This document shows positions 5,123 through 17,465 of a stretch of DNA of 64,000 nt, in pieces. Below the pieces are notes generated by a model. That model was given only the letters and a program-made list of their open reading frames with translations, had not been told where the DNA came from and made no database searches. Position 1 is the stretch's first letter; the number at the start of each line of letters is the position of its first letter. Source of the DNA: a virus; the IMG/VR virus record IMGVR_UViG_3300021425_002093, positions 1-64,000 of that record; one strand, given 5' to 3'. Both the position numbers and the translations under genes were made by a program.

Positions 5123-6286
5123 TTAGATTTCCCGAGTCATGATGTCAATCGTATTAGAAATATCAGTTGCAATATTTCGAAACTCTTGTTCCGTTCGGCC
5201 TCTTGTTGTTTCTGCGGCTGTCCCAATTCGAATACCACTTGTGTATTTAGGAGGATTCGGATCGTTGGGTATGCCGTTTTTGTTGACTACAATTTTTAGA
5301 TTCATTTCAAGTCGATCAGCAAGATCTGAGCCGTAGATGTCTCGTGAAGAAAGATCGACTAAAATCATGTGACTATCCGTTCCGTTTGTGATAAGAGGAA
5401 TACCTCGCTCTCGAAACACATCACACATTGCTCTTGCGTTTTCTACGACAGCTTTAGAGTAAAGATGAAACGGCTCTTTTGATGCTTCATAGAAACATTG
5501 GGCCTTTGCGGCTACGTGATTCATCAACGGCCCACCTTGAGTGCCGGGGAATACAGCAGAGTTAATTTTTTTCGTGAACGTATTATCGTTCCAAAGAATC
5601 ATTCCACCTCGAGGCCCACGTAACGTTTTATGTGTTGTTGACGTTACGACATCTGCGTGAGGAATCGGACTAGGATATGCACCCCCTGCGATCAGACCCG
5701 AATAATGCGCCATATCGACTAAAAGGAGCGCTCCCACTTTATCAGCAATCTCTCTAAATTTTTCCCAGTCGATTCTGCGTGGATATGCGCTTGCACCAGC
5801 AATGATCATCTTAGGCTTGACTTGAGTTGCTTGAGATTCGATTTGATCGTAATCAAGAAATCCAGAATCATTGACACCATAGTGATAGAATTCATAAAGA
5901 CTACCCGAAATATTAACGGGAGCACCATGTGACAAGTGACCTCCGTGATCGAGTCTCATAGCAAGCACTTTATCACCATGATTTAGCAGGGCTGTCATTG
6001 CGGCTAGATTTGCATTTGCGCCTGAATGTGGCTGAACGTTTGAATACTCACATCGATAAACTTCTTTGAGCATCACCTTTGCATAACTTTCTACATCATC
6101 GTAGATTTCACATCCATTGTAATATCTTTGACCGGGATAGCCTTCAGCATACTTGTTTGTAAAAACAGATCCTGTAAGCTCTCGTACAGCGTCACTCGCA
6201 AAGTTCTCACTGGCTATCATCTGAAGGAAAGTTTCCTGTCTTTGCTCTTCAGCATTCATATACATCTTTAGCACATCATTAATCAT
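5123..6286 (-). CDS. glyA: serine hydroxymethyltransferase
   Basis: IASENF, NKYAEGYPG, GGHLSHG, DMAHYSG, STTHKTLRGPRGG (PLP lysine), SGIRIGT. Confidence 0.97.
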   Translation of the reverse strand: MINDVLKMYMNAEEQRQETFLQMIASENFASDAVRELTGSVFTNKYAEGYPGQRYYNGCEIYDDVESYAKVMLKEVYRCEYSNVQPHSGANANLAAMTALLNHGDKVLAMRLDHGGHLSHGAPVNISGSLYEFYHYGVNDSGFLDYDQIESQATQVKPKMIIAGASAYPRRIDWEKFREIADKVGALLLVDMAHYSGLIAGGAYPSPIPHADVVTSTTHKTLRGPRGGMILWNDNTFTKKINSAVFPGTQGGPLMNHVAAKAQCFYEASKEPFHLYSKAVVENARAMCDVFRERGIPLITNGTDSHMILVDLSSRDIYGSDLADRLEMNLKIVVNKNGIPNDPNPPKYTSGIRIGTAAETTRGRTEQEFRNIATDISNTIDIMTREI

Positions 6287-13954: not shown

Positions 13955-14239
13955 TTACTTAGACTCTACAAATTCGTAAAGTTCTTTTGCTCTGCGATTG
14001 ATTTGATCGCTCGTAGGCATGGTTGGAATTGCAGCTAATAGATCATTTGCAACGATCTTTAATGCATCAGCGGCTTCTTTTGCTTCTTTTGGATAGACAC
14101 CAATCTGACCAATCTTCTCTTCAAACTGATTGAATAGTGCCCAGAATGAATTCATAAGAACCTCATACTGTTGCATCTCAAGATCACGAGCCATTTGTAG
14201 TACATCGAACCGAAGTTCGTAAGGGGTTTTGTTTGGCAT
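13955..14239 (-). CDS. conserved T4-like hypothetical protein
   Basis: KTPYELRFDVLQMARD...AKELYEFV; GGAGG RBS. Confidence 0.8.
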   Translation of the reverse strand: MPNKTPYELRFDVLQMARDLEMQQYEVLMNSFWALFNQFEEKIGQIGVYPKEAKEAADALKIVANDLLAAIPTMPTSDQINRRAKELYEFVESK

Positions 14240-14264
14240 AATAGCCTCCTGTGTGTTGTGTGTG

Positions 14265-14596
14265 TAGTGGTCCGTTGGGTAACAAGGTGGACCAAACCCC
14301 GCAGAGCTTAAGCCGCTAGTGCGACATCTCCGTAGTAATCGTCATTTGCTGCGATTATTTTTTTGAACCCTGTTTTTACAGACGGCGTTCATCGTCTGAT
14401 CCTCAGTATTGCTTTTGGTCGTCCGTCGAATCTATAACGCCCCCATCAGATAAACACTGTGTCGGATTTCCACCCACATACCCGGCGGCCGGGATCTTGA
14501 TCGTAGACTAAAATGACTACTCTTTAGATCAACAGTGTTCATCTGGTGGAGGCGAGGGGATTTGCACCCCTGTCCGCACTTCCTAATGACAACACG
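14265..14596 (-). ncRNA. ssrA: two-piece (circularly permuted) tmRNA
   Basis: Acceptor piece GGACAGGGGTGCAAATCCCCTCGCCTCCACCA ends at 14544; coding piece starts GGGGGCG...GATTCGAC at 14444 (G3-U70, A73); tag frame (A)ANDDYYGDVALAA* at 14352-14308 after AAAAAAATAATC. Outer ends approximate. Confidence 0.93.
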
Positions 14597-14671
14597 TCAT
14601 CGAATACTAAAGTACATGGTGACTTCAAAGCCAGCACGTACATCAATTGCTTTAGGTTTTGTCCACTTCAT
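14597..14671 (-). CDS. pqqA: pyrroloquinoline quinone precursor peptide PqqA
   Basis: MKWTKPKAIDVRAGFEVTMYFSIR*, 24 aa; WTKP...GFEVTMY with the E-x3-Y core; TAAGGAGGT RBS. Confidence 0.92.
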   Translation of the reverse strand: MKWTKPKAIDVRAGFEVTMYFSIR

Positions 14672-14690: not shown

Positions 14691-14698
14691 TATTTATA
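14691..14698 (-). promoter_or_regulatory. T4 late promoter for pqqA-ssrA
   Basis: TATAAATA about 20 nt upstream of the pqqA ATG. Confidence 0.8.
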
Positions 14699-14731: not shown

Positions 14732-14760
14732 ATATTACACTAAAATTACGTCTATGTCAA
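14732..14760 (-). promoter_or_regulatory. sigma70-like promoter for pqqA-ssrA
   Basis: TTGACA-17 nt-TAATAT. Confidence 0.65.
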
Positions 14761-16793: not shown

Positions 16794-17465
16794 TTATCCT
16801 CCTAGTGGAAAAATTTCAGAAATCACTTTAGCACATTCTATTGCTATATCCATATGCTCTTTCTGAGTACCATTTTCTTTTCGTAGGTCTACATAATGTA
16901 TCCAACTACGTAACGTTCCGTTCATGTACATACGAGACTTTGTATTACCTTCCGGTAGTACGGCACGAGCCTGCTCTTTGGCAATACCATTTTTGATAGC
17001 CCAATCATATGCTCTTCTTGCGGCTTCTATGACACGTTCTTGTTGCCATACCCATTCTTCTTGCAATTCTGTGTCGTCAGTTACAATTGAATTTTGTCGA
17101 TTCTTTTTGTCTTGCAAACGTGCTTCTCGAATCTCAAACATCTCACCCATCTCAGCGGGATTAGCATATCGCTGACTAAACTCTTGAAACGAAAATGAGC
17201 GATGACGCAAAATCTGTCGTGCAATGTCACGAGTCGTTTCAATCTCCATGCAGATACTGACCATTTCAAATGGTGACCAATGAGCATGTTTCTTGAGATA
17301 GTTTAGCAGTTTCTCGTTTGTTTCAACGTTCATCTGATTCGAAGGATTACTAACTCTTGCACAGTAAGCGACCAAGTCTTGTATGCCATGCGGCATCTTT
17401 TCATAGTCATCATCGAAAGGATTGCCTTCATGGCCGACACTGTAACTGACGAGTTTAACTTTCAC
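16794..17465 (-). CDS. thyX: flavin-dependent thymidylate synthase
   Basis: HWSPFE, RQILRHRSFSFQEFSQRY, EQARAVLP, TQKEH. Confidence 0.97.
   Translation of the reverse strand: MKVKLVSYSVGHEGNPFDDDYEKMPHGIQDLVAYCARVSNPSNQMNVETNEKLLNYLKKHAHWSPFEMVSICMEIETTRDIARQILRHRSFSFQEFSQRYANPAEMGEMFEIREARLQDKKNRQNSIVTDDTELQEEWVWQQERVIEAARRAYDWAIKNGIAKEQARAVLPEGNTKSRMYMNGTLRSWIHYVDLRKENGTQKEHMDIAIECAKVISEIFPLGG

Follow-up and report, generated by a model that had tools for sequence, protein, structure and literature searches.

PqqA is the peptide precursor of PQQ. The Glu-x3-Tyr pair of the peptide is cross-linked by PqqE, and its W-x-x-P-x3-[DE]-x-R leader is recognised by the chaperone PqqD. In Methylophilaceae, 3-12 pqqA copies accompany one pqqBCDE set (PMC4109929), and the occurrence of such stand-alone copies apart from the single pqqBCDE cluster suggests that precursor dosage matters. 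Several of the bacterial MAGs that we sampled also carried multiple pqqA copies. In the gammaproteobacterial MAG JAWLAN01 (L255:88-229 (-), L277, L278, L283) at least five copies with the searched motif were found, including a tandem pair spaced by about 110 nt, which is a further case of pqqA dosage amplification outside Methylophilaceae.

On the viral side, Coutinho et al. have reported a PqqA in the Lake Baikal methylotroph-phage population VP_266 (2020, Microbiome 8:163, PMC7678222). The initial annotation of the locus studied here had warned that its novelty needed checking, and this publication shows that the warning was justified: the basic phenomenon of phage pqqA is not new. Orphan phage pqqA as a kind is real and widespread, and with the publication of a viral PqqA in 2020 (PMC7678222) it was already known. 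What is new in the phage described here is a phage-only peptide lineage and a conserved, overlapping pqqA-tmRNA fusion, and the latter merits experiments.

We analysed a window of 64,000 nucleotides, with which an IMG/VR virus record of 143,934 bp begins (IMGVR_UViG_3300021425_002093; completeness about 80% by CheckV). The record carries genes of a T4-like myophage, namely those for a gp43-type DNA polymerase, a class I RNR, a DnaB-like helicase, ThyX, SHMT and a cell-wall hydrolase. The best match of the DNA polymerase was Phage C48C1 (Kyanoviridae, 53% identity), by this gene the closest cultured relative, for which no host is listed. Because the T4-type DNA polymerase, RNR and helicase are spread across the window, the setting of pqqA is that of a bona fide phage and not of host contamination. 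The gene lies in an island together with tRNA-Arg, tRNA-Asn, tRNA-Thr, an HNH endonuclease and a permuted tmRNA. The features of the locus are as follows.

14597..14671, minus strand: pqqA, 24 codons plus TGA (translation, PF08042, TIGR02107, purifying selection among phage homologues)
14679..14687, minus strand: Shine-Dalgarno element TAAGGAGGT, with a 7-nt spacer to the ATG at 14671-14669 (direct reading)
14691..14698, minus strand: T4 late-promoter-like octamer TATAAATA, 19 nt 5' of the pqqA ATG (motif enrichment in the window)
14732..14760, minus strand: sigma70-type, early-type promoter-like site TTGACA-17-TAATAT (consensus scan only, 10/12 matches)
14308..14606, minus strand: circularly permuted two-piece tmRNA gene, ssrA (Rfam RF04321, 89.9 bits against a gathering score of 47, model positions 1-213)
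14217-14636: tmRNA call of ARAGORN, with the tag AANDDYYGDVALAA

Translation of the reverse complement of 14597-14671 gave the peptide MKWTKPKAIDVRAGFEVTMYFSIR, followed by TGA. The plus strand of the same coordinates yielded nothing meaningful, and pqqA was therefore assigned to the minus strand. The product is a stand-alone peptide whose length lies in the expected range of about 20-30 aa, and the ORF has a start, a stop and a ribosome-binding site to itself. On this peptide, the Pfam PqqA family PF08042 scored 37.3 bits (cut-off 21.1, E = 2.5e-9) and the NCBIfam PqqA family TIGR02107 scored 38 bits (cut-off 20, E = 1e-9). A six-frame PqqA search of the whole 143,934-bp record returned this ORF as its sole match (35.6 bits, above the cut-off). 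The two E-values, together with the uniqueness of the match, rule out a chance match. The cross-link residues E16 and Y20 are present within a G-[FLM]-E-[VI]-T-x-Y core, and the leader residues W3, P6, D10 and R12 follow the W-x-x-P-x3-[DE]-x-R pattern.

We then compared these results with the initial annotation, which had proposed a 24-codon PqqA ORF with a strong ribosome-binding site, a T4 late promoter and an upstream sigma70-like promoter. Its ORF was confirmed by translation, and the strand, which it had left unstated, is now fixed; its assignment to PqqA is upheld by both profiles, each of which scored above its curated cut-off. The three expression signals were all recovered, with TAAGGAGGT 7 nt 5' of the ATG, TATAAATA at 14698-14691, and TTGACA-17-TAATAT at 14760-14732 agreeing with the consensus at 10 of 12 positions. 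We counted 13 copies of the octamer TATAAATA in the window, where 3.0 would be expected (0 of 100 shuffles reached this count), and 11 of the 13 are on the coding strand. This enrichment and strand preference suggest that it acts like a late promoter of the phage. The same octamer was also found 5' of the pqqA homologue in contig L302.

To the statement that pqqB-E are missing from the window we can add that they are missing from the whole record. Family searches found no PqqB, PqqC, PqqD or PqqE in the entire 143,934 bp (a record about 80% complete), and neither a radical SAM domain nor a PQQ-dependent alcohol dehydrogenase was found in the whole phage record. As a positive control, the same family searches recovered PqqE and PqqC in pqqA-bearing bacterial genomes. 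The gene is thus not linked to pqqBCDE, yet membership in PqqA is not excluded by this, because orphan copies are normal in methylotrophs (PMC4109929). SHMT (Pfam SHMT, 468 bits) and ThyX are encoded on the minus strand of the window, at 5123-6286 and 16794-17465, respectively. Speculatively, SHMT, ThyX and pqqA could together connect host C1 metabolism with dTMP synthesis.

We consider it probable, at roughly 0.7, that this is a functional phage pqqA, an auxiliary metabolic gene that would supply the consumable PQQ precursor to host enzymes. We infer its expression, its processing by host enzymes and its benefit to the phage along the following lines. The 24-codon ORF would be transcribed from the early sigma70-type and the T4-late-type promoters and translated from the strong ribosome-binding site. 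Host PqqD/PqqE would then cross-link Glu16 with Tyr20, and a peptidase, PqqB and PqqC would convert the peptide to PQQ, one peptide being used per cofactor. The phage would carry just the part of the pathway that is consumed: the precursor may be exhausted after host transcription stops, and the catalytic enzymes may persist. The benefit would be that periplasmic PQQ-dependent dehydrogenases (methanol, alcohol, glucose) are kept loaded and continue to provide energy and C1 supply in infection. Against this stands that PQQ is a stable cofactor, so that the need of a lytic phage for extra PQQ is a matter of argument.

We explored the spread of viral pqqA in IMG/VR with a degenerate DNA pattern for the PqqA core, which returned at least 120 contigs, all of those listed carrying clean 23-27-codon ORFs. 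The 120 listed contigs, the window and Melnitz-1 made up a set of 122 pqqA genes. Among these listed matches, an SD-like element was found 6-10 nt upstream in 120 of the 122. No pqqB-E was detected by tblastn in the flanks of any of the 120 listed IMG/VR loci, nor among the loci from the metagenome and junction scans that were tested alike; by comparison, the same tblastn found at least two of pqqB-E flanking pqqA in 48 of 79 bacterial loci. In 25 of these 79 sampled bacterial loci, the flank covered contained no pqqB-E. Proteins shared with the T4-like phage of the window or with cultured methylotroph phages were encoded at 79 of the 120 listed loci. Viral pqqA was not confined to relatives of the window phage: other phage lineages carried it as well, among them each cultured Methylophilales phage that the search retrieved, and most viral PqqA copies were nearly identical to the Methylophilaceae-type PqqA.

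Every cultured Methylophilales phage obtained by tblastn, that is, Melnitz (four strains), Venkman, MEP301, MEP401/402 and P19250A, had an intact pqqA. The copy of Melnitz-1 is located as follows.

74882-74956 of Melnitz-1 (= L002:4001-4075), plus strand: pqqA, an intact, unannotated ORF

Other copies in cultured Methylophilales phages are those of L295, L296, L297 and L298, and the Venkman gene is followed by a clean GC-rich hairpin. In the GenBank records of these phages pqqA is unannotated, and Melnitz has an opposite-strand 'hypothetical protein' instead. Such a small gene falls below the size threshold of most gene callers, which explains why the records that we examined for cultured methylotroph phages lack it. 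Among the publications searched, those on these isolates made no mention of pqqA. No match to PqqE or PqqC was detected in five complete genomes (Melnitz-1, Venkman, P19250A, MEP402 and MEP301). The ORF of the window, its family, its signals, its orphan status, its conservation and the spread of its kind are established.

The top tblastn match was 'Acinetobacter phage MD-2021a' (L123, CAKLQF020000010.1 105204-111275), which we rejected as a phage example, since the DNA is bacterial and encodes polyphosphate kinase (ppk) and an entire pqqABCDE operon. At least for this 144-kb contig the phage label is probably an error, and the contig was used solely as a reference for PqqB-E.

The peptide of the window was at most about 67-70% identical to any sampled phage or bacterial PqqA. 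It has Ala13, where bacterial PqqA has Ile, Phe or Leu, and it ends in ...MYFSIR. A search of 185,579 species genomes of bacteria and archaea did not find its nine-residue core AGFEVTMYF, which was present in 8 IMG/VR contigs and 9 metagenome contigs. Those contigs that include neighbouring genes come from T4-like phages related to that of the window, the proteins in common being 35-66% identical, and none of the AGFEVTMYF contigs tested carried pqqB-E. An assignment of the host through the peptide was tried and rejected, because the best bacterial matches, of the Acinetobacter type, shared only 17 of the 24 residues and none of the species genomes contains the core motif.

The position of pqqA differs among the T4-like relatives: it is located after nrdA-nrdB, between tRNA-Thr and the clamp loader, or near thyX. 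At the subclade loci the coding sequences were 71-80% identical as against about 25% for the flanks, and homology ended at the ORF borders; in a BLASTN comparison of the window with L204, it spanned the pqqA ORF and nothing around it. Pairwise pS within the subclade was 0.5-0.75 and pN 0.09-0.20, which gave pN/pS values of 0.15-0.35. The core was invariant among the 10 distinct subclade sequences while its codons varied, an invariance that was partly imposed by the search patterns and is to that extent circular. For this reason, selection was recomputed on the nine leader codons that are fixed by no pattern, which gave pS 0.61, pN 0.20 and pN/pS 0.32. As a caution, the otherwise near-universal acidic leader residue at position 10 was replaced by Val or Gln in 3 of the 10 distinct sequences. 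The loci with Val or Gln at this position are L285, L287, L288, L290, L291, L294, L299, L300, L301, L304, L289 and L307.

Both E16 and Y20 are kept among homologues whose synonymous sites are near saturation, which upholds the initial annotation, since it had named a lack of purifying selection on these residues as grounds for refutation. Judged from the aligned sequences, the subclade represents a family of phage genes in which purifying selection acts on the peptide, and not a recent pick-up, because synonymous sites are near saturation, the peptide is conserved, homology is limited to the ORF and the genome positions vary. A phage-only PqqA lineage also argues for long phage residence over repeated recent capture. 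The same evidence bears on whether pqqA could be a neutral passenger gene that entered from a host not long ago and plays no role in infection. A tRNA/tmRNA island with a nearby HNH endonuclease is a typical hot spot of gene gain, and the gene can decay, as in contig L309 (see below). However, near-saturated synonymous sites under a conserved protein, homology confined to the ORF, varied positions in diverged relatives and a motif absent from bacterial species genomes make such an origin extremely improbable.

The divergence of the subclade could also mean that the peptide is a decoy or regulator, which would bind host PqqD/PqqE or another partner and block or redirect PQQ synthesis or signalling. 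The phage-specific subclade, the unusual Ala13 and the variable acidic leader residue are in accord with this, and the processing of the peptide to PQQ is itself inferred. For precursor supply, in turn, Ala13 and a core motif found in no bacterial species genome mean that compatibility of the peptide with host PqqD/PqqE is an assumption. Against a decoy, however, it is the cross-linked core G-F-E-V-T-M-Y that never varies, although a peptide acting solely by binding PqqD could do without it, and it is the leader that is more variable. Moreover, the near identity of most viral copies to the Methylophilaceae-type PqqA speaks against a decoy, and a lytic phage has no obvious gain in shutting off an energy-yielding cofactor. 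We regard this explanation as very unlikely and retain that of precursor supply.

We next considered the junction between pqqA and the tmRNA. Position 1 of the RF04321 model falls inside pqqA codons 22-24, which gives an overlap of about 10 nt between pqqA and the tmRNA gene: model positions 1-10 coincide with the final codons of pqqA and its stop. The permuted tmRNA has the RF04321 score, the G3-U70 pair, the CCA end and the tag reading frame expected of its kind. In consensus scans of the minus strand, no terminator-like or promoter-like site was found between pqqA and the tmRNA, and no promoter for the tmRNA alone was found inside pqqA. A search of 11-18 kb at Rfam gathering scores gave no glutamine riboswitch.

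The module from pqqA to the permuted tmRNA is kept in seven further contigs, including L300, L302, L305, L306 and L308. In these five the pqqA stop is followed by 10-14 nt, the T-arm region and then the acceptor strand ending in CCA, and nucleotide identity was 68-73% by blastn in the four metagenome contigs compared. The acceptor stem with G3-U70 (U-G at the third acceptor position) was kept in all seven aligned modules. In the seven-sequence alignment, 84% of the cells in the tmRNA helices were paired and five pairs varied on both sides, which supports the helices overall. The segment between the acceptor and coding pieces (window 14445-14545, minus strand; alignment A1, columns 134-225) varied greatly in length and sequence among the seven modules; it was almost absent in L309 and about 100 nt long in the window.

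An outermost helix between AUUC of the Ser-Ile-Arg codons and GAAU or GGAU in the coding piece is possible in 7/7 sequences. This candidate helix is invariant across the seven and shows no covariation, and because it never covaries it is unproven. In all seven linked genes the Phe, Ser and Ile codons at the pqqA 3' end showed no synonymous change, and residue 23 is Ile only in tmRNA-linked genes, the four distinct unlinked types having Val or Leu. Common descent alone could account for both the invariance of the 3' codons and Ile23. L309 (10780-11100, minus strand) is a natural deletion variant: its pqqA lacks the ribosome-binding site, the start and the W-x-K-P leader, and the remaining 3' half stands before an intact-looking tmRNA. 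This decay indicates that pqqA is dispensable at least sometimes.

Such data raise the question of whether this clade retains the ORF chiefly for its RNA, which would serve the tmRNA precursor as 5' leader and as one strand of the closing helix, the peptide being secondary or vestigial. The conserved junction in the window, L300, L302, L305, L306 and L308, the location of Rfam model position 1 within codons 22-24, the AUUC/GAAU pairing possible in 7/7, the lack of synonymous change in the F-S-I codons of all seven and the 3' half left before the tmRNA in L309 are all compatible with this. Nevertheless, the AUUC helix does not covary, and the 5' two-thirds of the ORF are rich in synonymous changes while the protein is conserved and the SD element is present. 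The same subclade also occurs without tmRNA in L204, the L285 type, L289 and L303. In Melnitz and the L039 record the tmRNA has no leader and starts about 7 nt after a sigma70-type -10 element, which indicates that the tmRNA needs none. Retention mainly as RNA is thus unlikely, and selection for the peptide remains our preferred reading.

The simplest reading of the junction is an insertion of pqqA downstream of a strong tmRNA promoter and ahead of the tmRNA itself, with one shared precursor transcript, from which both products of this clade would be made. A stronger form of the same idea is possible, and we put it forward tentatively. In this form, pqqA and the two-piece tmRNA might constitute one bifunctional transcript, with the pqqA mRNA as a 5' extension of the acceptor piece, its last codons (Ser-Ile-Arg-stop) as the 5' strand of the closing helix, and translation physically coupled to tmRNA folding or maturation. 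Either the acceptor RNA would retain a translatable ORF, or 5' cleavage would leave a stop-less pqqA message, itself a tmRNA substrate. If true, this would be an unreported link of a cofactor-precursor gene to ribosome rescue.

The initial annotation had also pointed to synteny with ssrA. This was borne out for the present phage clade by the conserved module, but not for viral pqqA in general: only 3 of the 122 listed pqqA loci had a tmRNA within about 600 nt, and in two of them the tmRNA was upstream. The pqqA-tmRNA fusion is therefore clade-specific. In the IMG/VR contigs L039 and L118, another viral pqqA type lies about 546 nt and 63 nt, respectively, downstream of a permuted tmRNA; given these opposite gene orders, pqqA and tmRNA became neighbours at least twice. 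We also used the upstream neighbour gene (79 aa, phrog_1811) as a synteny anchor and found neither pqqA nor tmRNA nearby in any of its 80 loci. As phrog_1811 loci occur without either gene, this neighbour is of no use as an anchor, and the pqqA-ssrA block is a lineage-specific insertion.

A phage pqqA would mean that a virus can supplement a host cofactor pathway through a 70-nt gene for the consumable substrate alone. The gene can flag phages of hosts that depend on PQQ enzymes, for example coastal or lake methanol oxidisers, and it bears on C1 turnover altered by infection. The conserved pqqA-tmRNA fusion, in turn, offers a compact system for studying an mRNA and a structured RNA that share one transcript.

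Cyanophage psbA (D1) is a functional analogy only: there, too, the phage carries only the rapidly consumed component of a host energy system and the host gives the rest. Protein, pathway and hosts are unrelated, and D1 is a subunit limited by turnover, in contrast to the stoichiometric substrate PqqA. The closest described system is the Lake Baikal population VP_266, which likewise has a stand-alone viral PqqA gene, proposed as an auxiliary metabolic gene for PQQ-dependent methanol oxidation (PMC7678222). It is, however, a single annotated metagenomic example beside a viral methanol dehydrogenase, while our record has no dehydrogenase; in addition, the window peptide belongs to a divergent phage-only subclade, and its gene is fused to a tmRNA gene.

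In the cultured Methylophilales phages, as in the window phage, pqqA is an intact ORF (23-24 codons) preceded by an SD element; their genomes are those of bona fide lytic phages, and the complete ones tested gave no PqqE or PqqC match. Their peptides, however, are of the Methylophilaceae type, with which the window peptide shares no more than 67% identity. Melnitz resembles the window phage further in being a T4-like myophage that has a two-piece tmRNA, and its published medium contains 1 nM PQQ (PMC9004378). Unlike in the window, pqqA of Melnitz adjoins tRNA-Leu and is separated from ssrA by about 30 kb, and the Melnitz tmRNA begins directly at a promoter. The orphan pqqA genes of bacterial methylotrophs are similarly stand-alone and away from the sole pqqBCDE cluster (PMC4109929); they are cellular genes, whereas the window gene is phage-borne and has a core motif found in 0 of the 185,579 species genomes. 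Finally, the tmRNA of the window agrees with other phage two-piece tmRNA genes (Melnitz ssrA; RF04321) in being circularly permuted, with an intact alanine identity pair and tag frame. It differs from them in that an ORF with translation signals fills the leader and overlaps the first model positions.
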